Below, one piece after another: positions 2-11,040 of a stretch of 11,611 nucleotides of DNA; position 1 is the stretch's first letter; each line of letters starts with the position of its first letter. The DNA is from Promethearchaeota archaeon (GTDB taxonomy: Archaea; Asgardarchaeota; Lokiarchaeia; Sigyniarchaeales; SOKP01): assembly GCA_048938895.1 (NCBI GenBank), contig JBHLLU010000093.1, positions 1 to 11,611 of the forward strand. The letters run 5' to 3'. The notes beneath the pieces were generated by a model that saw only the letters and a program-made list of their open reading frames with translations, did not search any database and was not told where the DNA came from. Position numbers and translations under genes: made by a program.

Positions 2-487
2 TTGCATAAGAACACTCGAAGAATTATATCCCGCTTGATTCTCAACTATATTATTTTCACCAACATCCGATAAATCAACTTTTGATTCAATAAATGTCGA
101 TTCTGACTTCTTGTTCATCATCGCAGCGGCTCTGGCCAAAGCTGGATATGCCATATGAAACCAACCTTTTGCTTTTGGTTTAATATGAGCAATAAAAAGC
201 GTTTTCCCATCGGGAGTGGATGCTCCTACCAAGTGTCCCATTTTTTTACGATTTGTTGCAATAAATCGTTCAGGTTCCATTTGCAATATTGAATATCTTA
301 TACCATCAAGGGTTACAAATTGAGCATTTCCACTGGCCCAATTCGATAGTACTCCTTTTATATCTCTCTTCACATCCCATTTTCCACTGGAATGTAGCAC
401 TTTTCCCTGTCTATCTACTACCGCAACTTGGGATGCGTCAGGATAATGTTTTTGTAATTTATCTACAATGGATTTGATATTTACCAT
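2..487 (-). CDS. Asgard-type profilin-domain protein with C-terminal extension (partial, runs off the left edge)
   Basis: Not in the ORF track. Manual translation from ATG at 487 is open for 162 codons to the window edge: MVNIKSIVDKLQKHYPDASQVAVVDRQGKVLHSSGKWDVKRDIKGVLSNWASGNAQFVTLDGIRYSILQMEPERFIATNRKKMGHLVGASTPDGKTLFIAHIKPKAKGWFHMAYPALARAAAMM-NKKSESTFIESKVDLSDVGENNIVENQAGYNSSSVLMQ... The first ~124 aa follow the Lokiarchaeal profilin pattern as I recall it (AVVDxxGxV...W...; GIxYxI...ERxIxTNxxxxGH; C-terminal helix). Confidence 0.85.
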   Translation of the reverse strand, partial: MVNIKSIVDKLQKHYPDASQVAVVDRQGKVLHSSGKWDVKRDIKGVLSNWASGNAQFVTLDGIRYSILQMEPERFIATNRKKMGHLVGASTPDGKTLFIAHIKPKAKGWFHMAYPALARAAAMMNKKSESTFIESKVDLSDVGENNIVENQAGYNSSSVLMQ

Positions 488-511: not shown

Positions 512-1897
512 TTATATTTTATCAGAATGGTCTATTGCTAATTTTACCCATTTATTTAGCTCTACCAGAAGTTCTTTCTTTTCTTTGGGACTTAATCCTA
601 TATTGGGTTCTGATCGTTGATAAATATTTGCATACTTACTTAGATCCCATAAATAATTTTCATGCAGTACCTTCTTTTTGATATTATTTCGTGCTATATC
701 AAATACTTTTCCAATTGTTATTATATCATAATTTTGTTCAACTATTTTTTTCAAAGTCATCAGGATTTCTAAAACGTTATTATGGGGTATATAGGGGAGA
801 GGCTTTATTTCTACAAAAGGGCGTTTCATGGTTCTAATTTCAAATTCTTCTTGTCTTCTTTGAAACTCAGATATTTCAGGTTGTTTTAGCTTTCCTTCTT
901 CCTTGGATTGGTATAATTTAGTTTTTACTTTTGGTACCCTTCTCTCTAATTCTTCTTTTGTCTGTCTTTTATGATCCATGGACCAGTCTTTAAAGGAATT
1001 CATTCTACTTTCTGCTGAAATAAAAATAGACTCTTTAGGCATTTTTTTATCGGTTCTATCTTCTTCAAGGTTAAATGTAAATGGTCTAGATGATTTTAGT
1101 AGAGGAGCAGAATTTTCAATTATTGAAAAGAGAAACATTGGGTCATAATCAATCGTGGAATAAAGAACTTTTAATTTTATGATATTATCTTTAATCTTTT
1201 TTAATTCAGAATTTGTAAAATGTTCATATAAGTGTCTATCTGCTCCAAAAGTAATACCAAATAACCCCGCTGTAGGATTTAAGTATGATGCCTTAGGTTC
1301 ATATTCCATATCTCCAGAAATCAATATCTTATTATAAGAATCCCATTCTGTGCTTAATAGCATATGACCATTTCTGTTAAATTGAAAAGACTGGGGATCA
1401 CGAATAGTTTCCATAAATTCTAAGAAGATATCTTTATAGGGTATAAACAAATTTCTCATAAGTGTACCTTGGATGAACGTTATTTTGTTTTCTGACTTAA
1501 AAGACATATCAATTGGTACTTTGAATAGATTTTCGCTGACAATTACATCTCTATCGTTTTCTAAGGTAATATTTTTCAAAGTCGCTAGATGATCATATAC
1601 AAAGTCATTTAATATTAACCCTGTCAATTGCCTGTTATCTGTTATATATCTCCCAGATTGTAGTTCAAATTTGACGTAATAGTAACCCAATCCAAATATG
1701 TAATAAAGAGTTCCTCTTTCAGTTGAAACAGCAACCTCGATACCACCTAAGAAAATTACAAGATCTTGAGAAATCTTCGATATCTTGTGATTTGCATAGC
1801 TTCCAAGAGTAGGATATCCTAATAAATTCCCCCAACTAGGGATGACAAAAAACATATTATTTTCGAAAAGATTACGGGCAATGATTTGGGTCGACAT
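512..1897 (-). CDS. Hypothetical cytoplasmic protein (N-terminal globular domain, charged linker, C-terminal helical domain)
   Basis: 461-aa ORF with no TM segment or signal peptide. About 260 aa of aromatic/Gly-rich alpha/beta sequence (IPSWGNLLGYPTLG, YIFGLGYYYVKFELQSG), a K/E/R-rich linker and an ~85-aa amphipathic helical C-terminus. Its stop is 24 bp upstream of the profilin start, which suggests an operon. No family recognised. Confidence 0.85.
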   Translation of the reverse strand: MSTQIIARNLFENNMFFVIPSWGNLLGYPTLGSYANHKISKISQDLVIFLGGIEVAVSTERGTLYYIFGLGYYYVKFELQSGRYITDNRQLTGLILNDFVYDHLATLKNITLENDRDVIVSENLFKVPIDMSFKSENKITFIQGTLMRNLFIPYKDIFLEFMETIRDPQSFQFNRNGHMLLSTEWDSYNKILISGDMEYEPKASYLNPTAGLFGITFGADRHLYEHFTNSELKKIKDNIIKLKVLYSTIDYDPMFLFSIIENSAPLLKSSRPFTFNLEEDRTDKKMPKESIFISAESRMNSFKDWSMDHKRQTKEELERRVPKVKTKLYQSKEEGKLKQPEISEFQRRQEEFEIRTMKRPFVEIKPLPYIPHNNVLEILMTLKKIVEQNYDIITIGKVFDIARNNIKKKVLHENYLWDLSKYANIYQRSEPNIGLSPKEKKELLVELNKWVKLAIDHSDKI

Positions 1898-2015: not shown

Positions 2016-5000
2016 TTAAGATTTCTTTTTGATTTCTGTACCACAGGTAGGACAGAATTCTGCTTCTTCATAGATATATCCATCGCAATTTGAACACTTT
2101 GAAGTATAAATTCCAACATTTTCAGAAAAGATCATTTGATTACCACATGATCCACAGTATTTATTTGATAAATATATTGATTTACCACAATTGTTACACA
2201 CTTTTTTAGAATCTATAAAAGGTAGTTCGATTTCTTCAACTTCTTCTTTTTGACTTTTCCTTTCCATTATGCGATGTATAACGAGAGCAGAAAATCCAGC
2301 AATAATAAAGGGTACAATTACTACTAAAAGTGCCATTCCGGTTTCAGCAGTGAGTAAATTTGTAGTCGAAACAACTCCAATCAACACTGTTACTAAAAAT
2401 GCTATTGTTTTATAACCCATCTGAGTTATTAATCGGGAGGAATTTTGATCTTTTATATAAAGTAATAGATTATCTGAAGCTCCTTGTGTTCGCTGTTCTT
2501 GAACGTTCTTCACTGTTTTTCTTAATTGGAGGTAGGTTGTTATCATTACAAGTACTAATGATGTAAAAAATACACCGAATACAGAAATATATAATTTTGG
2601 GATTGAAATTGTCCCAAGATCATAAGTTTGTTCTATCAAATAATAACGGAACCAAGCTATTTCGTATCCTCTAAACAGAATCATCACAATATTGAGTAAC
2701 ATAAATCCAATTTGGAAAAATTCTAACATGATATTTCGCTTGAATATCTTTTCCAAATAGATATTTAGACTGATATCCCTACTAATAAGGATCATATATC
2801 CGAATATACTTAGAACTAGGCTCGCAGCAAGGAGTAATACTCCTCCTTGTGGATTATAATCAGCAAGTATATAACCCATAAAGAAAACGGATATGGTTAT
2901 AGCTAAGATTCCTAAATAAGCTATGGTAAAAGGTGATGCTCCTGCAGATTGTTTCAAAAGAATTCCTTTTTCATCAGATAGTTCTTTTTTTTTACCAAAT
3001 TGCAAACGTTTTTTCTTAGGTTCTTCTGCACCCTTTTCAATTTTCAATGACTTTTTAGCATATTCTCTGAGAAAAATTTGTTTATATATTACTTCATGGC
3101 TTTTACTTTTCAATTTAATATATCCAAAGGCAACTAGAAACCCTACTACTGCAGCTAATACTACTACAATGATAGATCCAGAGCCAGAAATTGCTAGGCT
3201 TGGAATCTCGGGGTAAAATGAAATTTGCTGAGTATCAAGCAAAATTGTCTGATCACCGAAAATATCATAAAGCAAGACTTCATACATCAGAATTCTAGTA
3301 TCTTCAGGGATGCCTTCTAACGTACCTGTGAATTCAGGACTATTTGGTATTAATTCCAAATAATACCACGTTGTTCCTCCATCAAAGGAGTAGTGGAAAG
3401 TGATGTTTTGTACATATTCTAAATCTGTGTTAATTGATATAATTATCTCGTAATTTTGGGACGAAGAATAGCTATCTGTTTCGTTGAAAAGACCCAAGCT
3501 TTCCCATTCAAAGCGAGGCATATCATAAGTGTAATATAAACTTCCTCGGTCTTCATCATAGACATTTCCTGCAAGGTCAATAGCTTTAATATAGTATTGA
3601 ATCATATTTGTGAGATTATCATGAGGAATTACCGCCAGAAACGTATCTCCTCCAACATTTTCCATCGGAATGATAATCCAATTTCCTAAATCTCTTTTAT
3701 AGTATACGAAGGCAGAAAAACCGACACCATCCGTTATATCTGCTGTTACTTCTACATCTAGTCGTGGTGTTGGAGTAAATGTCCAATTAATATTCGGTTC
3801 TGAAATTTGTGGTGCATTGTAGTCTGCAAAGAACCAACCTTGAGTGTTGATGAAATTACCCGCATCATCTCTAAGATGAAGATTATAGGAATAATTACCT
3901 TCTGAAATATATGACCCAAAATCATCAATTCCATCAAAACTAATTTCTGTATGACTCGCTGAAGAAAGAGTTTCCTTTTTAGTCCGAATTAAACTTCCTT
4001 CACGGCTAAAATATACTTCATAATCATTTCCATCAGATTTCTGAGTCACATAAAAGGTATCAAAAATACTTGATGTAAAAGTTGTTGCATTATTTGAATC
4101 TTTCACCATATATGGACCTGACCATGTTGCTCCTAAGTCAACTGAAACAATTTTTTTAACAGTATAATTAGTCCAACTTCCTGTGGTTTGTTGGTCATGT
4201 ATATATATCATTTTCATTTTAATGAATGGTGGATCTGGAGCTCTGGTAATTAATAATTTCGGCTCTCTAGTGAATGTCCCTACGGGATAAATTGTCCCCG
4301 TCCCTCTAGGATTTCTCCATACTCCAGTTGCAACGTCTAGAGTAGCAACTAAATAATTTGCGACACGAGTACTATTTAAATAGGGTAAAACTACATGTAA
4401 TAAATCATTTTCAGGATCATATGCCATGTCACCCGGTCTGTCGTATACATTCGTAAAGCCGGGTGGATGTACAAGCCATTCTTCAGAAATTTCCCAATTA
4501 AACCCTAAGTCAATCGATTTTAAAACAGTATATAGTGAGGGATAATTTCTATACAACAGAAATAGCGTTCCATTATTTGATAAAACCAATTTCTCAACTT
4601 TATCATTCGTTACTAAATTTGTCATTACTATTGGAGGTTCAAAAAATTCTCCCCCAACAAAACTCCTATATAGGAGATCCTCATTTGTATCCACGTTTCT
4701 CAAATAGATTAAAACCATAGGTCCCCATGCAACACCTTCGTATCTAAAATCTGAACTGTCACTTACAATTCTTGTAATTTCGATTGGATTTGACCAAGTA
4801 ATCCCATTATCATGAGACTTTATTAAATAAACAATTTTTGTACCTAATTCAATTGTGTGATAGAGAATATAGAGTTCGCCTGTATTGGATCTAAAAATCT
4901 TAGGATCTCGTTCATGTAAGTTATTGTTAGTAACTTTTTGCCAGTCGCTTAGACTTGAACCTTGTTTAAAAATTTCTAAATAGGCGGTACATTCCTCTGA

Positions 5001-6605
5001 AGCAAGTAAATCCCACTCAATGTCTTTAAAAGTGATATCACTAGAAAGAGGATTGAAGTAGTGTTTCAATTGCGCATAATCTTCATAATACGGTATATCA
5101 TTATCAATGGTTATATATTTCGTGCTTGAAATTATATCTGTACCATTTTGAGCTCTAAATTCTACCTTTACTGTTGAAATGGTAATAGGATCTATATCAT
5201 TTATTCGACCATTCCAAAATCTCTGCACTGGTTCATCTTTGATAAAGAAACCATTAGATTCCCAAAAGATAGGATTAGTAAGGACATAATATTGATATAC
5301 TTCTGTAAATCCAGTATATGATGCTTCATAGAACAATTGGAATTGATTTCCATCATACATGAAATTTAGAGGAGCATAAGAATGAAACATATTTTCTAAG
5401 ACATCATGATGGCCAAGTGATGTGTTATCCCATGGATTTCCAAAACCCATACAAGTAACATTTAAAACTTCATATGCATCATAAGGATAACTCATACCAA
5501 TTGGATGAATTTGTATCATCCGGAAAAAGGATTTTTCCCAATCATAAAGAAAATCAAAGTTACAATCTTTTCCACTATATGCAACATCAAATGGAACGTT
5601 TGAATATAAACTCTCGTTATCCCCTCCGTTAAACTCCACCCAATCAATATTGAAAGTAAATGTATCATTTGTATACAGCCACGTCAACCAATAATCACCT
5701 GATGTATGATCGACTTGTAATTTAATTTTTCTTATAGAAGTACCATGTGAAATTGATACGTTCTTTGGGACACTCCAAGTCATACCATTATCATGACTTT
5801 CAAAATAGACGATAGGCGTATAGCTAGGGTGGCTTGATTGAGAAATTACGTAAATAGTTTCGTTTTTTAAGATGCATAAGTCGATTTGAGGGATGTAACC
5901 TTTAAATGGATTAAAGAAAAAATTTGCACCAATCTCAGGAGCCTTTATAATTGTTTTTGGTGTATCCCATGTTGTCCCATTGTCAGTAGAGCTTACAAAA
6001 ATTAAATCTGAATAATTATACCAAGAGACAGATCCAATTAAACCGGTTTCAGGGTAAGCAGAGATAGCAGAGCCTCCTAAATCATAGAATAATTCAAGAT
6101 AATCACTCCCTGAAGGGACAAATTCCGCCATTGTTTTTTCCTCCCAATTTTTTCCCTTGTCAATTGAAATTAATAATTTCATTTTGAATGTGCCAATTCT
6201 ATTGATTGTTAAACCCTCGAATTCGATATCTTTTTCTATGTAAGAAACATACCAGAGATTAGAACCACTTGGATTATCGAAAGCAACATTTCCTTCTAGA
6301 TCTATCGTACTTGTTAATTCACTCGGAAAGTTTTCTACTGTTATTGAAAAATTTCCATCTTTATTAGCCGTAAATGAGAAAAAAACATCATCATTTGAGC
6401 CAGGAGATGCCTCAGGAGAGATATAATATGTGGATGCTCCAAATTCTTGGACTAACATGAAAGGTTCATTTGATAAACTTAAATCTTCTACATATAAATA
6501 TTGATTTGTACTATCTTTTTTATTATTCAAAACTCCCAAACTTAGAATACTTGGAATTATCATTAAAAGTAATAGTAAAATTGAACCCATTGTGTTTTTT
6601 TTCAT
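2016..6605 (-). CDS. Large cell-surface multi-pass membrane protein: 2 BNR/Asp-box (sialidase-like) propellers, FlgD-type/Ig-like domains, ~7 TM, C-terminal double zinc ribbon
   Basis: N-terminal signal peptide/anchor MKKNTMGSILLLLLMIIPSILSLG. Asp boxes SIDKGKNW, STDNGTTW, SHDNGMTW, SHDNGITW, SIDLGFNW, SVDLGATW, SFDGGTTW. FlgD-Ig motif ISFDGIDDFGSYISEGNYSYNL. Ig-like ends DDAGN, AIDLAGN, YDIFGD. Many N-x-S/T sequons. Seven hydrophobic segments at ~2270-3180 and four CxxC motifs (CNNC, CGSC, CSNC, CPTC). Confidence 0.9.
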   Translation of the reverse strand: MKKNTMGSILLLLLMIIPSILSLGVLNNKKDSTNQYLYVEDLSLSNEPFMLVQEFGASTYYISPEASPGSNDDVFFSFTANKDGNFSITVENFPSELTSTIDLEGNVAFDNPSGSNLWYVSYIEKDIEFEGLTINRIGTFKMKLLISIDKGKNWEEKTMAEFVPSGSDYLELFYDLGGSAISAYPETGLIGSVSWYNYSDLIFVSSTDNGTTWDTPKTIIKAPEIGANFFFNPFKGYIPQIDLCILKNETIYVISQSSHPSYTPIVYFESHDNGMTWSVPKNVSISHGTSIRKIKLQVDHTSGDYWLTWLYTNDTFTFNIDWVEFNGGDNESLYSNVPFDVAYSGKDCNFDFLYDWEKSFFRMIQIHPIGMSYPYDAYEVLNVTCMGFGNPWDNTSLGHHDVLENMFHSYAPLNFMYDGNQFQLFYEASYTGFTEVYQYYVLTNPIFWESNGFFIKDEPVQRFWNGRINDIDPITISTVKVEFRAQNGTDIISSTKYITIDNDIPYYEDYAQLKHYFNPLSSDITFKDIEWDLLASEECTAYLEIFKQGSSLSDWQKVTNNNLHERDPKIFRSNTGELYILYHTIELGTKIVYLIKSHDNGITWSNPIEITRIVSDSSDFRYEGVAWGPMVLIYLRNVDTNEDLLYRSFVGGEFFEPPIVMTNLVTNDKVEKLVLSNNGTLFLLYRNYPSLYTVLKSIDLGFNWEISEEWLVHPPGFTNVYDRPGDMAYDPENDLLHVVLPYLNSTRVANYLVATLDVATGVWRNPRGTGTIYPVGTFTREPKLLITRAPDPPFIKMKMIYIHDQQTTGSWTNYTVKKIVSVDLGATWSGPYMVKDSNNATTFTSSIFDTFYVTQKSDGNDYEVYFSREGSLIRTKKETLSSASHTEISFDGIDDFGSYISEGNYSYNLHLRDDAGNFINTQGWFFADYNAPQISEPNINWTFTPTPRLDVEVTADITDGVGFSAFVYYKRDLGNWIIIPMENVGGDTFLAVIPHDNLTNMIQYYIKAIDLAGNVYDEDRGSLYYTYDMPRFEWESLGLFNETDSYSSSQNYEIIISINTDLEYVQNITFHYSFDGGTTWYYLELIPNSPEFTGTLEGIPEDTRILMYEVLLYDIFGDQTILLDTQQISFYPEIPSLAISGSGSIIVVVLAAVVGFLVAFGYIKLKSKSHEVIYKQIFLREYAKKSLKIEKGAEEPKKKRLQFGKKKELSDEKGILLKQSAGASPFTIAYLGILAITISVFFMGYILADYNPQGGVLLLAASLVLSIFGYMILISRDISLNIYLEKIFKRNIMLEFFQIGFMLLNIVMILFRGYEIAWFRYYLIEQTYDLGTISIPKLYISVFGVFFTSLVLVMITTYLQLRKTVKNVQEQRTQGASDNLLLYIKDQNSSRLITQMGYKTIAFLVTVLIGVVSTTNLLTAETGMALLVVIVPFIIAGFSALVIHRIMERKSQKEEVEEIELPFIDSKKVCNNCGKSIYLSNKYCGSCGNQMIFSENVGIYTSKCSNCDGYIYEEAEFCPTCGTEIKKKS

Positions 6606-6724
6606 TTTCTTATACCTTTTCTGGTAAATTGTAAATTAAATGTTGAAATATTAATAATAAAATTTGTTTATATGGATTTCTATCTCACTAAAACTGGACA
6701 GAATGTTATATTATATTGAATAAT

Positions 6725-6744
6725 GAGAAAAGATAAAAAGAAAA
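6725..6744 (-). terminator. Putative oligo-T terminator after chemoreceptor 1
   Basis: Minus strand TTTTCTTTTTATCTTTTCTC directly after the stop at 6746. Confidence 0.45.
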
Positions 6745-6745
6745 T

Positions 6746-7858
6746 TTAGAAATTTTTACTTTGTACTAGTGCTGCTTTCAGAGATTCTGCTAATTTATCA
6801 AGCTTATTTGCTGTTGCTGCTATTTCTTCCATTGAAGCTGTTTGTTCCTCAGCACTGGCATTAATTCCTTCCATTGATTGGGATACAGTTCTTATTTTGT
6901 AAATAATATCATTAATATTTGTATCTGTGCTTGATATTGCATTCTTTGAGTTTTCTGCTAATTTTCTTACTTCACTAGCTACAATGGCAAATCCTCGGCC
7001 ATGAGCTCCAGCTCTACCTGCTTCTATACTTGCATTCAAAGCGAGTAAATTAGTTTGGTCAGAAATCGAGGTAATAATGTTCATAATATTCTGTATTTTA
7101 TTTGATAAATTCATTACCTCTTCTGTTGTCGAAGCAGCTTCTTGAGTAGAAGATGATATCTGCTCTGAAGCTGCATTTACTTCGCTTGCACTAGCAGATA
7201 ATTCAGTTGCTATATTTGATACATTTATACTCATTTGAGTTGCACTTTCAATGATAGAGGTTAAAGAATTATTCATTTGATGAATTCTATGTTCAATAAT
7301 AGCAACCAATCCCATTACAAGATAAATAGTATCCATATATACCATAGCAAAATGACTGAATTCGGTTTGGCTTGTTCCAGAAGTTCCAATCATTGCACTG
7401 AGTAAGCTTAAAATTGCACCTACAAATTGTAAACAATAAAATGCATGAAAAAGAGATCTTTTCTTAATGTATAACCGAATAACTAATACAAAGCAAACCA
7501 GTATAAGACCCATCATCATATAATAGAAACCAAAAGTCACTCCCCCCATAAGAGCAGCAGTGTATTTAACTTTTATATTTTTCACGTTCTTTATTTTTAT
7601 GAATGTTTGATAATATTCTCGAATTACTGCGTAAAATAATATGAATGTACCTGAGGAGAAAAAAATCATTGCAACCGGATTCACTTGGTTTGCTTCTTCC
7701 ATCGGAATCGCATTTATAATATAACCAATGGTTGTTATAAGACATGACATGAACCAAAGTTTTATATCTCTTCTTTTTGTATAAGCTACGAAGAATATAC
7801 CAGAAGCGAAACACATAATTGTGGCATGTAATATATTTATCAAACTGAGAACAGGCAT
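6746..7858 (-). CDS. Methyl-accepting chemotaxis protein (multi-TM sensor, short MCPsignal hairpin)
   Basis: MCP signature [38 protein letters not shown]. Methylation-type motifs ASEQISSS and [10 protein letters not shown]. The N-terminal ~188 aa hold 6-7 TM segments. Confidence 0.93.
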
Positions 7859-7952
7859 TTTCTTATCCTTTAGTGGTTTTATTTACAAATATGCAAATCT
7901 TTATTTTATTGTGTAAAATAAAAAATTATTGATAAAAGAATCTAAGATTTGA

Positions 7953-7970
7953 TATATAAACCTTTCTTTT
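7953..7970 (-). promoter_or_regulatory. Putative BRE/TATA promoter of chemoreceptor 1
   Basis: Minus strand AAAAGAAAGG-TTTATATA, a good archaeal consensus, ~95 bp upstream of the ATG. Confidence 0.6.
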
Positions 7971-8004
7971 TACAAATTTCCATAAAATTAATCGAGGAAT
8001 TAGA

Positions 8005-8031
8005 TCTAGAGGATCAAAGCGATCCTCTAGA
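8005..8031. repeat. Perfect 11-bp intergenic inverted repeat
   Basis: TCTAGAGGATC-AAAGC-GATCCTCTAGA. Confidence 0.85.
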
Positions 8032-8070
8032 AAAATTTGGAAGAAGCTAAGGAAGTAATATTTCTAATTT

Positions 8071-8361
8071 TTAGGTTAGAAATACATTTTTTAAGATATT
8101 AATAGCTATTTTTTTTTTTCCATTTGATATTTGATTTATTTCATTTCCAATTGAATTAAAATTATCTGGGGGTAAATCCTCGAATAAAGCTAATATAATA
8201 AGCATTTTATTCAAAAAGTATTTTGTGTTTTTATTATTTTCCAAAGTTTTGACTAACTTGATCTCATCTATATTCTTACTTGAGATATTTGTTTGAAAAT
8301 AATTAATAAGATTTGAATGTTCCTCCCTTTCATTATGGTCTTTATATTTTGAGTTAAACAT
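8071..8361 (-). CDS. Small hypothetical protein (96 aa)
   Basis: ATG preceded by SD-like GTGAGGA (8369-8375, 7-nt spacing). Starts 26 bp after the chemoreceptor 2 stop and fills the intergenic space. No recognisable domain. Confidence 0.6.
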   Translation of the reverse strand: MFNSKYKDHNEREEHSNLINYFQTNISSKNIDEIKLVKTLENNKNTKYFLNKMLIILALFEDLPPDNFNSIGNEINQISNGKKKIAINILKNVFLT

Positions 8362-8387
8362 GCCTTATTCCTCACTCTAAAGTGATT

Positions 8388-9533
8388 TTAGGAAATTGTA
8401 TTTTTTACTAGTGATTCTTTCAGATTATCTGCCAGTTTATCTAGCTTATTTGCGGTAAGGGCAATTTCTTCTAGTGAAGTTGTCTGTTCTTCTGCTGAAG
8501 TGTTGATTCCTTTCATGGCGTCGGAAACTCTTTGAATTTTATTTACAATCTCATCGATCTCTGTACCCGTTTCTGAAACAGCATTTTTAGAAGTTTCAGC
8601 GAGTTTTCTTACTTCACTTGCTACGACCCCAAATCCACGACCATGTATGCCTGCTCTTCCAGCTTCAATACTAGCATTTAATGCAAGTAAATTTGTTTGG
8701 TCAGAAATCCCTGTTAAGATATTCATTATTTTTCTAATATTATTAGATAAATTCATAATCTCCTCGGCTATTTTAAAAGCTTCTTGGGTCGAGGATGAGA
8801 TTTGTTCTGATGCAGCATTTATTTCACTTGCACCAGCCGCCAACTCTGTCGCAATATTCGATACATTAATACTAGCTGAAGAGCTCTCTGATAATAATTT
8901 TTTCAATGAATTTTGAAATTTCTCAGTTTGTAATTCTAATAAAGCAACAAGCCCAGTTATTAACATCAAAGACACAAATATAATTGTCATTCCTAAGCCA
9001 AATTCATTGGTTTCGGTTAAGTTTAGATCCCTTAAAGTAGAGGAAAGGATTGTTAGAATTGCTGCAAATAGAGTTAAAATAAAGAATGCATAGGTGGGGG
9101 ATCGATTTTTCCAATATAATCTGAATTGCATAATTAAACTAGCTATTGCAAGAATGAGGATAAGGAATTCAGCACCTAATATTATAGGCAATATTGAAAA
9201 CATAGAAAGTTTCTTCATTTCGATAGATTGTTTACTCAAATTTGGTTTAATGAATACTGAATAATATTCTCGAGAAATTCCTGCGAAAATGAATATTATT
9301 GCAAGAACAAAAAGAATATTCATTATTATACTTCCTGTCTCTCCTACATATCTATGAAATGTACTAAGTAACTGACCTGTCATGACCAAAAAATAAGATG
9401 GAAGCCATTTTAATAAGTCTTTACGCTTTCTACAAACCCAAATAAAAATCATGGTTGCTATTACAATGATTGTCGTAGCTTGGTTATCTATTATTGTAAA
9501 ATTGGTTTCTACCATATTATATTCCAAGATCAT
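8388..9533 (-). CDS. Methyl-accepting chemotaxis protein, paralogue of 6746..7858
   Basis: MCP signature [38 protein letters not shown]. Same multi-TM N-terminus with the shared REYYxxFIK motif. The start could alternatively be the ATG at 9515. Confidence 0.93.
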
Positions 9534-9636
9534 TCTATTATAACAAAAATTTATACAAAAGAGTCAGAGGAAAATGTGCAAATTCTACTCTTTCTGATAA
9601 ATTTCCTTACTTTTTTATAATTTATAATTTATTTTG

Positions 9637-9650
9637 TATATAAATTTTTA
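9637..9650 (-). promoter_or_regulatory. Putative TATA promoter of chemoreceptor 2
   Basis: Minus strand TAAAAA-TTTATATA, the same TATA octamer as upstream of chemoreceptor 1. Confidence 0.5.
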
Positions 9651-9699
9651 CATCACAAATAATTTATTATAAAATAGAACAATGTTATTTACAACAAGA

Positions 9700-11040
9700 T
9701 TATTGAGAAAATTTTTGGTATCCTCTCCTTTTTATCCTAACTTCTTTTATACGATATAAGAAAATAAAATCAAAAAATAATCTAAATAAACAGGAAATTA
9801 AAAAAAGAGTTTCATACACACTTACAAAAATAACAGGAACTATACTTAATAATATTGTTCCAAAAATTCCACCAAATAAAACTCCAATGCCAAGAAAAAG
9901 ACTATAATAGGAGACATAAAATCCTCTTTCTTGAGATGATACATTATCATATATAAAGTTTGAAGCAGTTAAATTTACTCCCGTCCAGGTGAATGCTGAA
10001 ACCAGTTGAGGACCAAATATTAGTTGAAGAGGAGTATTCATCGCAATCCACAGAATGGGCACAATAGGCAATATTAAACAACAAATCTTTAGTACAAATG
10101 CATTTCCGAATCTATCTGAAAGATAACCTAATAGAGGGTAGAATAACATGCCAAGAAGAGGTGTAGATAAATTCACAATTACATATTCTAAGGGTGTGAA
10201 TTTTAAAATAACCCACATATAAACTCCAACAAACGGTGCTCCAATATTAACAGAAAAAAAAATTAGAGTCATAAATAATGTAAAAAATCCAAAATTGTTG
10301 TTTCTCATCAGTTTTATAAACTTTTTAAGACTGATATAAGATTTTTCTTCAATTTTAAAAGATGGATAATAATGTCGTGCTAGTAAGTACCGGGATAATA
10401 CTCTACTTATGAAAGCAATGAAAAATATAATAGAAAATCCTAGAAACACTTTATTGATATCTAGAAATCTTTCCAAAGCTATTGAAGATAATAAACTTAC
10501 ACTTATAGAGATAGCAGTAATGAATAAATTACGTTTGGAAAAATACCTTCCACGATGACTTTCAGGTACAATATCTCCCATTAAAGAAAACCAGCTGGGT
10601 CCACCAATTGAACCAAAAAAAGAATAGAGGCAATAAAAAATAATTAGAAAAATAGGTAGAAATGATAAGAACCAATTATTTAGGGCAAATATACCAAGTA
10701 GGATAATTAATGGCCAGACAATTAACTGTAAAAAAACACTTCTTAATATTAGAGATCGTCTTGTGTTCTTCTTCATAAGATTTGATCCAGCAATCTGACC
10801 AATTGGTGATAAAATACCAAGTAATGAACTCATGATTCCTATTTGAGTATCTGTAGCTTGTAAAGAAAGCGCATAAGGAGTTATAAATTGATCTGCTAAA
10901 CTTTGAGCAAGTCCACCGAATAATCCCTCTTTTATTGAGAGAGACATAGTTTCATTCTTAAAGAAGATATCCTCAAATTCTTCTAAAACTGACGTTTCTT
11001 TCTGAATAAATTCGGGTGGTTTATCCTCTTCAGCACTCAA
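9700..11040 (-). CDS. MFS transporter (substrate unknown)
   Basis: 446 aa, ~12 TM in a 6+6 arrangement. Motif-A-like GYLSDRFGN, plus MGDIVPESHRGRYFS and YDNVSSQERGFY loops. TTG start. Confidence 0.9.
   Translation of the reverse strand: MSAEEDKPPEFIQKETSVLEEFEDIFFKNETMSLSIKEGLFGGLAQSLADQFITPYALSLQATDTQIGIMSSLLGILSPIGQIAGSNLMKKNTRRSLILRSVFLQLIVWPLIILLGIFALNNWFLSFLPIFLIIFYCLYSFFGSIGGPSWFSLMGDIVPESHRGRYFSKRNLFITAISISVSLLSSIALERFLDINKVFLGFSIIFFIAFISRVLSRYLLARHYYPSFKIEEKSYISLKKFIKLMRNNNFGFFTLFMTLIFFSVNIGAPFVGVYMWVILKFTPLEYVIVNLSTPLLGMLFYPLLGYLSDRFGNAFVLKICCLILPIVPILWIAMNTPLQLIFGPQLVSAFTWTGVNLTASNFIYDNVSSQERGFYVSYYSLFLGIGVLFGGIFGTILLSIVPVIFVSVYETLFLISCLFRLFFDFIFLYRIKEVRIKRRGYQKFSQ

Follow-up and report, generated by a model that had tools for sequence, protein, structure and literature searches.

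Gene and overall layout

On the minus strand, positions 2016-6605 of the window (the whole stretch of DNA that was analysed, 11,611 nucleotides) held a single intact open reading frame (ORF) of 1529 aa with an ATG start and no internal stops. Its product, P0001, is a giant, type-I-like surface protein from an Asgard archaeon, composed in order of a signal peptide, two BNR propellers, an Ig-like stalk, an anchor helix, a basic linker, a six-helix module and a double zinc ribbon:

2016-6605, minus strand: whole ORF (P0001), 1529 aa, intact
6528-6605, minus strand: signal peptide-like N-terminus (aa 1-26; KK n-region and hydrophobic core, hydropathy peak at 8-26)
5277-6332, minus strand: propeller 1, six-bladed sialidase-fold BNR/Asp-box (aa ~92-443; AlphaFold2 (AF2) and VIA-align)
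aa 147, 206 and 270, minus strand: propeller 1 Asp boxes
3996-4961, minus strand: propeller 2, sialidase-fold BNR (aa ~549-870; Pfam BNR_2 and VIA-align)
aa 597, 697 and 821, minus strand: propeller 2 Asp boxes
3201-3965, minus strand: membrane-proximal Ig-like beta-sandwich stalk (aa ~881-1135; all-beta in the AF2 model)
3117-3176, minus strand: TM1, single-pass anchor helix closing the ectodomain (aa 1144-1163; hydropathy, AF2 and charge bias)
2931-3116, minus strand: cytoplasmic basic linker between TM1 and TM2 (aa 1164-1225; K+R counts, pLDDT and split ORFs)
2274-2930, minus strand: conserved six-helix membrane module TM2-TM7 (aa 1226-1444; no described family)
2040-2198, minus strand: cytoplasmic double zinc ribbon (aa 1470-1522; four CxxC pairs)

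The ectodomain of about 1115 aa was followed by seven hydrophobic helices and the C-terminal double zinc ribbon. The complete layout was common to 35 other proteins (TM and tail region E ≤ 2.3e-99) and so is no product of chance. The window's own genome had one copy of the TM module. N-x-S/T sequons numbered 19 in the ectodomain (12.4 ± 3.1 in shuffles) and 1 in the remaining 389 aa, a distribution that fits an extracellular glycoprotein.

Ectodomain

The AF2 ectodomain model had a mean pLDDT of 80. Propeller 1 (model range 66-417) superposed on GH33 and GH93 propellers with VIA-align Z of 22-23 (rmsd ~4 Å, ~300 residues), and propeller 2 (model range 523-844) on the NanA sialidase with Z of 23.4 (rmsd 3.9 Å, 298 residues aligned). 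Pfam BNR_2 matched residues 552-616 (3.5e-10; 40.1 bits, cut-off 31.4). The stalk was strongly conserved, with many invariant D, Y and G columns and an extra Asp box at aa 1073, and its matches to FlgD_ig and Reelin subrepeat B were weak and under cut-off.

A GH33-, GH93- or GH74-like glycosidase, tethered to the outer side of the membrane and breaking down polysaccharide on the surface of the cell, would agree with the superposition of both propellers on sialidase and arabinofuranosidase catalytic domains (Z ~23). It would also agree with the presence of GH74 xyloglucanases, enzymes with two propellers in tandem, among the top Foldseek matches (E ~1e-11; TM-score ≤ 0.40 by target). Such an enzyme is nevertheless decidedly improbable. 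The FRIP/RIP motif was absent from P0001 and present in just 3 of 31 aligned members, and Arg residues conserved at ≥ 85% numbered none in propeller 1 and two in propeller 2, with the sialidase Arg triad not conserved, although these criteria concern sialidases and not GH74 or GH93. At the level of sequence, both propellers lacked the sialidase catalytic signature. Pfam matches were limited to generic BNR repeat models, and the propellers evolved fast (31-40% identity, against 53-66% for the TM module), unlike a conserved active site. Because a sialidase fold (Z ~23) occurred with neither FRIP nor the Arg triad, the propellers would bind rather than cut.

P0001 shared with bacterial sialidases and BNR-repeat proteins (BNR_2, GH33) the six-bladed propeller, the Asp boxes (seven in P0001) and a BNR_2 match above cut-off, but differed from them in the unconserved FRIP and Arg triad and in carrying tandem propellers on a membrane-anchored giant protein. 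Sortilin/SorCS (VPS10-domain) receptors likewise combine a BNR/Asp-box propeller, Ig/PKD-like domains, a membrane span and a cytoplasmic tail, and the SorCS2 ectodomain was the top Foldseek match to that of P0001 (E 4.9e-14), with a TM-score of only 0.16-0.18. The VPS10 propeller has ten blades. In contrast, the P0001 propellers fitted six-bladed sialidases better and its anchor was polytopic rather than single-pass; Sortilin-Vps10 had no Pfam match in P0001 at E ≤ 0.1.

Membrane topology

Topology was assigned from hydropathy, AF2 helices and charge bias. A Kyte-Doolittle scan of P0001 (19-residue window) returned the N-terminal signal-like segment (8-26) and exactly seven further segments, TM1 at aa 1145-1163 and six after it:

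TM2: aa 1228-1246
TM3: aa 1256-1274
TM4: aa 1292-1310
TM5: aa 1338-1356
TM6: aa 1400-1418
TM7: aa 1425-1443

Helices in the AF2 model of residues 1130-1529 coincided with all seven hydrophobic stretches. This model was moderately confident (mean pLDDT 66.8, pTM 0.58), and statements on the fold of the TM module are therefore weak. Mean K+R across 35 sequences was 15.4, 3.5, 7.7 and 14.8 in the loops after TM1, TM3, TM5 and TM7, and 0.1, 0.0, 1.8 and 0.0 in the stretch preceding TM1 and the loops that follow TM2, TM4 and TM6. The predicted N-out/C-in topology thus holds, and its positive-inside pattern extends family-wide, beyond P0001. The preliminary description had quoted the same seven segments, noted basic loops after TM1, TM3, TM5 and TM7, and proposed a large ectodomain, an odd number of helices and a cytoplasmic double zinc ribbon; hydropathy and charge counts bore this out, and the even helix count that would place the ribbon outside was not found.

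The linker between TM1 and TM2 was 62 aa long in P0001 and 46-62 aa across the family. Its juxtamembrane part was conserved and the remainder variable and of low confidence (pLDDT < 50 at AF2 model residues 58-94). No other cytoplasmic stretch was so poorly conserved: in 29 closer homologues, identity was 25-77% in the linker and 53-92% in the six-helix block. Alignments to many distant relatives began only at TM2. At one locus (L022, one genome), an ORF of ectodomain plus TM1 adjoined a separate 345-aa ORF with the six helices and the zinc ribbon, and two database proteins (P0140 and P0146) began at the position homologous to this split point, making the linker a domain boundary where split forms are cut. 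Because distant relatives align from TM2, the linker is the least conserved stretch and a natural split exists, a 1+6 organisation fits the seven helices best, without a single GPCR-like bundle. One anchor with a separate six-helix domain had been offered earlier as the alternative to a seven-helix receptor, and is now the preferred layout.

Six-helix module

In every one of 35 pairwise comparisons, conservation was higher in the six-helix module than in either propeller; with P0004, for instance, P0001 shared 92% identity in the module and 39-40% in the propellers. Loops on both membrane faces matched the helices in conservation (0.75-0.78), including a 41-aa inner loop joining TM5 and TM6 and a 25-aa outer loop. 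Invariants of the close family were S1275-R1276-D1277 at the cytoplasmic end of TM3, E1295 and Q1298 inside TM4, and W1318-F-R-Y-Y in the outer loop, followed by a beta-hairpin. Among 22 diverse members of the wide family, only W1318, P1336, K1399, F1403 and P1432 were invariant or near-invariant.

The TM block matched no family in Pfam or NCBIfam, and had no match among sequences of solved structures or known membrane folds. Foldseek of the TM region against solved structures gave a designed nanopore as its top match (E 0.17). The best reading is that of a new, Asgard-specific membrane module; that the family might be undescribed had been suspected.

A role of the module itself as a channel, transporter or membrane enzyme (e.g., acting on glycans or lipids), fed or gated by the ectodomain, is improbable. 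It would accord with the strongly conserved membrane core, with the polar E1295 and Q1298 in TM4, the column of the latter holding His in several distant members, and with weak DUF2207_C matches in 4 of 22 members (best E 0.032). However, none of the transporter or enzyme families in Pfam and NCBIfam was matched, such a match being what the preliminary description had named as refuting its receptor reading; an internal 3+3 repeat was not detectable (hhalign probability 0.4%); fold searches gave generic helical bundles only; and charged or catalytic-type invariants across the wide family were none. Because only P, F, P, W and K columns were invariant or nearly so, the enzyme or transporter reading is unsupported by residues.

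Eukaryotic adhesion GPCRs (class B2) resemble P0001 in their very large adhesion-type ectodomain, seven helices, N-out/C-in orientation and cytoplasmic tail, and the R-D pair at the cytoplasmic end of TM3 is presumably reminiscent, in its placement, of the DRY motif of GPCRs. Even so, genuine, very remote homology to the adhesion-GPCR/7TM fold is extremely unlikely. P0001 had no Pfam match to GPS/GAIN or to 7tm families (7tm_1, 7tm_2, 7tm_3) at E ≤ 0.1. The AlphaFold and Foldseek comparison of the TM region with GPCR folds, suggested previously, came out negative (TM-score ≤ 0.25, probability ≤ 0.23), and an exhaustive structural scan reached GPCRs only at Z ~7 (rmsd 10.7-15.6 Å), within noise for helical bundles. 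The 62-aa cytoplasmic linker, a possible gene boundary, and the natural gene splits part TM1 from the other six helices, and the output is a zinc ribbon. GPCR kinship and an integral 7TM bundle found no support; what stood of the earlier adhesion-GPCR comparison was the large ectodomain, the seven helices and their orientation, an analogy only, as it had been called.

Prokaryotic 7TM receptors (7TMR-DISM and others) share with P0001 an extracellular sensor, a polytopic core and a variable cytoplasmic output logic. Their Pfam families were unmatched in the 22 members scanned; the outputs here were a zinc ribbon or none, not a kinase or cyclase, and the known range was Asgard only.

Cytoplasmic tail

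The CxxC pairs of the ribbon lay at 1470/1473, 1484/1487, 1504/1507 and 1518/1521. Three Pfam models exceeded their cut-offs: DZR (6.8e-7; 29.8 bits, cut-off 27.3), Zn_ribbon_15 (30.7 bits, cut-off 28.9) and Zn_Ribbon_1 (26.1, cut-off 25). In 35 aligned sequences, 7 of the 8 Cys were invariant and the other was conserved at ≥ 90%. A profile match to the DZANK1 chain (6.1e-5) was confined to the ribbon. Zinc ribbons of haloarchaeal CdpC are described in a preprint as binding FtsZ1 (bioRxiv 10.64898/2026.07.16.738847). Among 65 representatives of at least 1000 aa, tails carried a zinc ribbon in 42, were short in 18 and long without CxxC in 5. One 439-aa form had a helix-hairpin-helix domain C-terminal of the ribbon.

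Distribution, neighbourhood and trees

The six-helix module was carried by the representatives of 113 clusters formed at 50% identity, all named ones being Asgard, and was paired with at least two unrelated ectodomain types (BNR; FG-GAP with Big_1/Invasin Ig domains), the recurrence with varied ectodomains in Asgard genomes that had been proposed as a check. Members labelled Thorarchaeota had FG-GAP/Ig ectodomains and usually no zinc ribbon, with tails after TM7 mostly of 11-36 aa. With tails this short, the family can do without a cytoplasmic output domain, and for these members a role as anchor or scaffold would be enough. Integrin alpha subunits likewise join FG-GAP propeller repeats to Ig-like "leg" domains and end in a membrane anchor with a short tail, but these sister proteins, mostly labelled Thorarchaeota, bore the 1+6 TM module where integrins have one helix, and P0001 was BNR, not FG-GAP. 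PMC9258230 speaks of "integrin repeat-containing" proteins in Asgard archaea, crediting Liu et al. 2021.

The TM block was present in 39 of 201 genomes sampled from the phylum. Within the window's own taxonomic family, a profile query detected it in 1 of 40 other genomes, and a query with one divergent protein in 9 of 134. By these counts the gene is accessory and patchy. A conserved gene neighbourhood was not found. Two MCP genes lay upstream in the window only, a PAS histidine kinase occupying that place at the closest related locus (L015), and five further loci had no neighbours in common with the window.

The TM-module tree conflicted with the ectodomain tree. The pairs P0014/P0021 and P0030/P0033, each probably encoded on one contig, were sisters in the former and apart in the latter, and an AU test on the TM columns rejected the ectodomain clade (p 1e-79). 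The conflict would fit gene conversion, or co-evolving TM modules that touch one another or a common partner.

P0001 might instead be a passive envelope or coat protein, its 1+6 region a sturdy anchor and perhaps a platform for lateral oligomerisation without signalling or coupling. This is possible, if doubtful. Its size, signal peptide, sequon enrichment and beta-rich ectodomain suit a surface glycoprotein, Thorarchaeota-type members have no sizeable cytoplasmic tail, the signalling neighbours were not conserved, and Asgard cells are described as showing abundant unordered surface proteins in place of an S-layer (PMC9834061). A passive coat would leave unexplained why the six-helix block is the best-conserved part of the protein, the conserved inner and outer loops, and the 8-Cys ribbon of this subfamily, and absence from most genomes of the window's own taxonomic family is odd for a core envelope component. 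Archaeal S-layer and surface glycoproteins with a single C-terminal anchor share the signal peptide, the large glycosylatable beta-rich ectodomain and the C-terminal membrane attachment, but the anchor of P0001 was polytopic, highly conserved and joined to a cytoplasmic domain, and its gene accessory and patchy.

Proposed function

The reading preferred for P0001, with a probability of about 0.5, is a ligand-binding surface receptor or adhesin, serving in adhesion or sensing, with outside-in coupling through the six-helix module, the propellers binding without hydrolysis; the contact- or glycan-sensing role proposed in the preliminary description is reasonable. The extracellular ligand would most likely be a glycan or a component of a partner-cell surface. 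Because its conservation exceeds that of the propellers, its loops are conserved and it recurs with varied ectodomains and tails, the six-helix module is taken as a functional unit, and it may hold the ectodomain-bearing helix as a functional core, beyond passive anchoring. The link from the surface protein to a cytoplasmic partner, either protein or nucleic acid, would run through the conserved outer loop, the inner loops and also, in the subfamily of P0001, the zinc ribbon. By analogy, variable input, a constant membrane core and variable output form the pattern of a modular receptor. As background, a cultured Asgard archaeon is described as having a single membrane and no S-layer, with "complex surface proteins" proposed for cell-cell contact (PMC9834061).

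Architecture and membrane topology

The window makes up one entire contig of a genome of 4.65 Mb in 174 contigs (98.7% complete, 7.5% contamination), and its seven substantial ORFs all lie on the minus strand. One of them is intact and encodes P0001, so that the large ectodomain, the seven hydrophobic segments and the double zinc ribbon of the preliminary description were confirmed within a single protein.

Features of P0001: segments from a Kyte-Doolittle scan, with the assigned membrane side and mean K+R of flanking segments in alignment A1 (residues 1130-1529 of P0001 plus 34 homologues)
2016-6605, minus strand: intact ORF of P0001, 1529 aa
aa 8-26: signal-like segment
Segment before TM1: outside, mean K+R 0.1
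aa 1145-1163: TM1; loop after it inside, mean K+R 15.4
aa 1228-1246: TM2; loop after it outside, mean K+R 0.0
aa 1256-1274: TM3; loop after it inside, mean K+R 3.5
aa 1292-1310: TM4; loop after it outside, mean K+R 1.8
aa 1338-1356: TM5; loop after it inside, mean K+R 7.7
aa 1400-1418: TM6; loop after it outside, mean K+R 0.0
aa 1425-1443: TM7; tail after it inside, mean K+R 14.8

Hydrophobic segments were absent from the ~1115 aa after the signal-like segment in the Kyte-Doolittle scan, and the seven that followed were exactly those named previously, rather than an even number. An AlphaFold2 model of residues 1130-1529 (mean pLDDT 66.8, pTM 0.58; 70-88 in the TM core blocks) showed each of the seven as helical; the outer loop between TM4 and TM5 was modeled with a short helix and a beta-hairpin, and the ribbon tail with beta strands. 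N-glycosylation sequons numbered 19 in the ectodomain (12.4 +/- 3.1 in shuffles) and 1 in the rest of the protein. Together with hydropathy, the K+R bias of the loops, the AlphaFold2 helices, the sequon excess and the signal peptide therefore support the N-out/C-in topology with a cytoplasmic zinc ribbon that had been proposed from the positive-inside rule. The architecture and topology of P0001 were considered established.

The four CxxC pairs at the C-terminus exceeded the Pfam cut-offs for DZR, Zn_ribbon_15 and Zn_Ribbon_1. Double zinc ribbon DZR (PF12773) matched at aa 1470-1522 with two Cys4 knuckle pairs (29.8 bits; gathering cut-off 27.3), which bore out the reading of the four CxxC motifs as a double zinc ribbon, and the eight ribbon Cys were conserved across the 35 sequences of A1. 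A profile search of solved-structure sequences matched over the ribbon only (DZANK1, 6.1e-5). Archaeal zinc ribbons are described in one preprint as binding FtsZ1 (bioRxiv 10.64898/2026.07.16.738847). The relative P0146 (439 aa) combined six TM helices with a DZR and ended in a helix-hairpin-helix domain (HHH_5, 1.2e-7), and judged from that domain some tails in its family may bind nucleic acid.

One anchor helix and a separable six-helix module

The membrane part of P0001 consists of a single anchor helix and, separable from it, a module of six helices (TM2-TM7), and is not a unit of seven, because the TM1-TM2 loop is long and variable, alignments of relatives start at TM2, the spacing changes, and split forms occur. 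This arrangement had been put forward as the alternative in the preliminary description, and the long loop, the matches from TM2 onward and the split ORFs favored it. The basic TM1-TM2 loop measured 62 aa in P0001 and 46-62 aa in the family, was the least conserved cytoplasmic part, and was modeled with pLDDT < 50 at model residues 58-94. With aa 1136-1460 as phmmer query, many of the distant matches aligned only from query position ~90-120, that is from TM2 onward, and the spacing between TM1 and TM2 was shorter, about 40 aa, in the subfamily with FG-GAP ectodomains. At L022, a related locus in another genome, an ORF with ectodomain, Ig-like region, TM1 and basic tail ended at 2468 and abutted a 345-aa ORF with six helices and DZR starting at 2466 (split pair at L022:1429-3958, minus strand). 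P0140 and P0146 started with Met at the position homologous to the start of this second ORF. All three look like natural split forms, a frameshift at L022 being possible. The neighbor lying tail-to-tail with the six-helix ORF encoded a small GTPase of the Ras family (Pfam Ras 6.7e-43; L022:659-1216, plus strand).

Comparison with known membrane families

Scanned against NCBIfam, P0001 gave no match, and no Pfam membrane family was found in it at E <= 0.1 apart from a noise-level CcmD row. When 22 diverse TM-block sequences (alignment A3) were scanned singly against Pfam at E <= 1 and the 25 most shared families were listed, those common to most of the 22 were all zinc-ribbon models; weak rows in the TM region were DUF2207_C in 4/22 (best E 0.032) and Phage_holin_3_6 in 3/22. 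CcmD, DUF2207_C and Phage_holin_3_6 were taken as noise and rejected as identities of the TM block. The Foldseek comparison of the TM model that had been suggested for this region gave no PDB match at E <= 0.001 (best E 0.17, a designed nanopore). The best row of an exhaustive VIA-align search was a designed helical bundle (Z 10.2, rmsd 3.7 A, 160 aligned), with the noise level for helical models quoted for the tool as ~13. No GPCR, rhodopsin, transporter or channel family stood out in these fold searches. An ESM Atlas search with the TM block gave no usable match, a 3+3 internal repeat was not detected in it (hhalign probability 0.4%), and a homodimer prediction with two copies of residues 10-330 of the TM construct scored 0.00 and gave no verdict.

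True homology with GPCRs, which the layout of large ectodomain and seven hydrophobic segments might recall, is very improbable. As noted previously, no GPS or GAIN site was visible, and none was matched by Pfam in the whole of P0001 at E <= 0.1; adhesion GPCRs have GAIN/GPS directly before TM1, whereas P0001 has an Ig-like beta-sandwich there in the AF2 model. Pfam matched P0001 to neither a 7tm family nor 7TMR-DISM_7TM, and neither was among the 25 families most often shared by the 22 TM-block sequences. GPCR rows for the TM model (pLDDT 66.8) had E >= 0.4, probability <= 0.23 and TM-score <= 0.25 in Foldseek, and Z ~7 with rmsd 10.7-15.6 A, within helical noise, in VIA-align. Of the adhesion-receptor-like reading, the proposal of a new family therefore stood, the likeness to receptors held as analogy only, and kinship with GPCRs found no support.

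That the family had not yet been described agreed with a TM block without Pfam, NCBIfam or fold match. Features common to the two alignments were an anchor helix and basic linker ahead of a six-helix core, R-D where the second core helix reaches the inner face, a W-F/x-Y-Y outer loop with Pro after it, a conserved inner loop that closes with K-x-x-x-F-L, and Pro in the final helix. A description of the module was not found in full-text searches of the literature; supplementary files might list such proteins.

A channel, transporter or enzyme is an unlikely identity for the six-helix module. No transporter or enzyme family was matched in Pfam, NCBIfam, Foldseek or VIA-align, and although invariants of the close family (A1) included S1275-R1276-D1277, E1295, Q1298 and the W1318-F-R-Y-Y loop, only P1336, F1403 and P1432 were invariant in the 22 diverse members of A3, with W1318 and K1399 nearly so. 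No catalytic-type residue was common to these 22, which, as far as sequence can indicate, argues against an enzyme or ion-coupled transporter.

The ectodomain

An AF2 model of aa 27-1140, from a 31-sequence alignment, had a mean pLDDT of 80 and contained two propellers followed by an Ig-like region.

Domains of the ectodomain of P0001
Model residues 66-417, protein ~92-443: propeller 1, six-bladed (VIA-align)
Model residues 523-844, protein ~549-870: propeller 2, six-bladed (VIA-align)
Protein ~881-1135: Ig-like beta-sandwich, strongly conserved (AF2 model and alignment; fold searches barely covered this region)

The top Foldseek row was SorCS2 (E 4.9e-14, TM-score 0.16-0.18), and further top rows were multi-propeller receptors, sialidases and GH74 xyloglucanases, the last with TM-score <= 0.30 by query and <= 0.40 by target. 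VIA re-ranking put six-bladed sialidases on top, and each propeller superposed on sialidase or GH93 catalytic domains with Z 22-23.4 and rmsd ~4 A over ~300 residues. The VPS10 propeller of sortilins has ten blades and is accompanied by a 10CC module; a Sortilin-Vps10 Pfam match was not found in P0001 at E <= 0.1. Pfam BNR_2 (40.1 bits; cut-off 31.4) and BNR (35.1; cut-off 27) matched P0001, which carried seven Asp boxes of the form S-x-D-x-G-x-x-W.

Catalytic sialidases (GH33) have a FRIP motif and a conserved arginine triad. The motif R-[IVL]-P was not found in P0001, and RIP was present in 3/31 aligned members; Arg conserved at >= 85% in the 31-sequence alignment was absent from propeller 1 and occurred twice in propeller 2. 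Identification of P0001 as a GH33 sialidase was thus rejected. Since the catalytic signature is missing, the sialidase-fold propellers are read, by the GH33 signature, as binding modules rather than hydrolases, and a surface glycosidase, in spite of the fold, is improbable.

Family, architectures and distribution

Word-based searches retrieved 35 other close homologues of 903-1940 aa (E <= 2.3e-99). With P0001 included, precomputed Pfam matches comprised DZR in 35/36 and BNR_2 in 32/36. Another 14 shorter homologues are probably fragments, because they came mostly from contigs under 8 kb. An exhaustive search returned 113 representatives at E <= 1e-3, 53 at <= 1e-10 and 16 at <= 1e-30. By simple motif counts in the 65 representatives of >= 1000 aa, 42 had the four-CxxC tail (>= 2 Asp boxes in 32 of them), 18 had a short tail (0-1 Asp box in 16) and 5 had a long tail without CxxC. 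By Pfam, several sampled distant members combined FG-GAP with Big_1, Invasin_D3 or Big_7 Ig domains, without ribbon, and P0100 and P0085 carried DZR with an ectodomain of no recognisable family. A search with the TM region of P0103, a protein of the FG-GAP type, returned 94 clusters (1148-2529 aa). The suggested check whether the TM region recurs with varied ectodomains in Asgard genomes thus came out positive among the 113 representatives, with BNR and FG-GAP/Ig types. All source names were Asgard (Hodarchaeota, Hermodarchaeota, Lokiarchaeota, Promethearchaeota, Sigynarchaeota, Thorarchaeota, Sifarchaeia and Odinarchaeota), a restriction that holds as far as proteins are named, most of the family carrying no name; named members of the sister FG-GAP subfamily were mostly labelled Thorarchaeota. 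An undescribed, highly conserved six-helix module is common to these giant Asgard surface proteins, with varied ectodomains and tails.

The A3 profile matched 146/201 sampled genomes of the phylum, most matches covering only ribbon positions. Matches spanning the TM block occurred in at least 39/201 genomes, with up to four copies per genome among the matches listed and 116 weaker matches left out of the count. By family within the phylum, these 39 genomes were distributed, among the matches listed, as f7 25, f17 4, f15 3, f20 2, f1 2 (including the window's genome), and f6, f24 and f26 1 each. In the window's kin the profile found the TM block in 0/10 other genomes of the genus and 1/40 of the family, among the matches listed. 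The divergent query P0146 gave TM-block matches in 14/400 genomes, including 9/134 others in the window's family and 1/53 in its genus. Because the TM block was found in few genomes, the giant gene is accessory, with a patchy distribution. The window's genome held one copy of the TM module. The gene was rare among close kin, and the window is a short contig of 11.6 kb in a bin with 7.5% contamination. Eleven sequencing runs of DNA or unknown type from five studies, one possibly the source, held part or all of the giant gene; no RNA run was among the runs listed.

Conservation and evolution of the module

The six-helix block was more conserved than both propellers in 35/35 pairwise comparisons, typically with 53-66% identity vs 31-40%; in P0004 and P0007 compared with P0001, the block reached 88-92% and the propellers 37-40%. 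Loops of both faces were conserved as much as helices. The main rival reading is of a coat protein whose role is structural only and which has a robust anchor: the tail-less state of Thorarchaeota-type members agrees with it, but the extreme conservation of the six-helix module and its loops does not, and it is given only about half the weight of the receptor or adhesin reading.

Trees of 30 full-length proteins from the ectodomain (849 columns) and the six-helix block (223 columns) were in conflict. The pairs P0014/P0021 and P0030/P0033, each probably on one contig because the longest contigs of both partners were equal in length, were sisters in the TM-block tree with support of 99 and 92 but fell in different ectodomain clades, and P0004 and P0007 grouped with the window's clade for the TM block only. 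Forcing an ectodomain clade of eight on the TM columns lowered the log-likelihood by 245 units (AU p 1e-79), the clade having been taken from the ectodomain tree after the pairwise identity table had been seen. This conflict points to gene conversion or recombination affecting the TM modules of paralogues, or to co-evolution.

P0027 and P0029 had consecutive locus tags, and in P0014/P0021, P0030/P0033 and P0027/P0029 giant-gene paralogues were seemingly side by side. The TM modules of such pairs were near-identical sisters with ectodomains of different clades, which suggests concerted evolution of the membrane module in paralogue pairs.

Gene neighborhood

Other ORFs of the window
2-487, minus strand: partial 162-aa ORF, downstream; no Pfam family
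512-1897, minus strand: 461-aa ORF, downstream; no Pfam or NCBIfam family
6746-7858, minus strand: methyl-accepting chemotaxis protein (MCPsignal 1.8e-29), upstream of the giant gene
8071-8361: 96-aa ORF between the two chemotaxis proteins; no family
8388-9533, minus strand: methyl-accepting chemotaxis protein (MCPsignal 4.5e-30), upstream of the giant gene
9700-11040, minus strand: MFS transporter, upstream

The two chemotaxis proteins (MCPs) were paralogous; both had an N-terminal block of five to six TM helices and lacked an obvious extracellular sensor domain. These polytopic domains showed no kinship with the six-helix block (hhalign probability 0.1% and 1.3%). An Atlas search with the 461-aa protein gave a best score of 0.77, below the useful range. 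L015, the closest related locus, was 86% identical over the TM region and retained the MFS gene as well as the two downstream ORFs, and the counterparts of the 461-aa and 162-aa ORFs, found at L015 only, were in the same place with 75% and 81% identity. The MCPs were replaced there by a 757-aa PAS/HisKA/HATPase histidine kinase on the opposite strand. None of the window's other genes occurred in the remaining six of the 7 related loci, and a functional link of the giant gene with its neighbors was rejected, L015 being the only locus of 7 to share genes, without the MCPs. The slot between the MFS gene and the giant gene (6606-9699 vs L015:1904-4177) was variable and held sensory genes in both loci, possibly by coincidence. 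A 97-aa ORF at 2923-3216 (plus strand) lay antisense to the TM1 and linker part of the giant gene, and in L015 it was open as well, with 61% identity over 54 aa. Rather than a gene, it is most likely a by-product of conservation on the coding strand.

Interpretation

P0001 may be a ligand-binding surface receptor or adhesin whose six-helix core couples the ectodomain to the cytoplasm, a reading held at a probability of roughly one half. In a bolder and less probable reading, adhesion ectodomains of eukaryote-like kind would be coupled across the membrane to cytoplasmic partners by the six-helix module; these ectodomains are sialidase/sortilin-like BNR propellers in P0001 and, in the sister subfamily, FG-GAP propellers with Ig legs that resemble those of integrin alpha. 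Candidate partners would be the cytoskeleton, the division machinery or nucleic acid, reached through the conserved loops, the double zinc ribbon, or the ribbon with a helix-hairpin-helix tail. Association of the core with the helix that bears the ectodomain would be in cis, or in trans where the two are split, and paralogues would have co-evolving TM modules because these assemble together. This bolder reading, of an Asgard-wide superfamily of modular outside-in adhesion and signalling receptors, is tentative and given about half the weight of the simpler one.

Asgard cells have been described as having complex unidentified surface proteins and no S-layer, and these proteins are proposed to mediate the contacts between cells that have a central place in eukaryogenesis models (PMC9834061). 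Asgard genomes are also mentioned as encoding integrin-repeat proteins (PMC9258230). The conserved 1+6 TM module is better conserved than its ectodomains and has no Pfam or NCBIfam model. It provides a concrete signature with which a whole set of giant Asgard surface proteins can be searched for, and in these it is accompanied by at least two classes of adhesion-type ectodomain and by several kinds of cytoplasmic tail. If it only anchors, it would be a new archaeal surface-protein anchor and a handle on surface densities in cryo-tomography; if it couples outside to inside, it would define a lineage-specific receptor system. The Asgard-wide reading, if true, would bear on syntrophic contact between cells in the lineage ancestral to eukaryotes.
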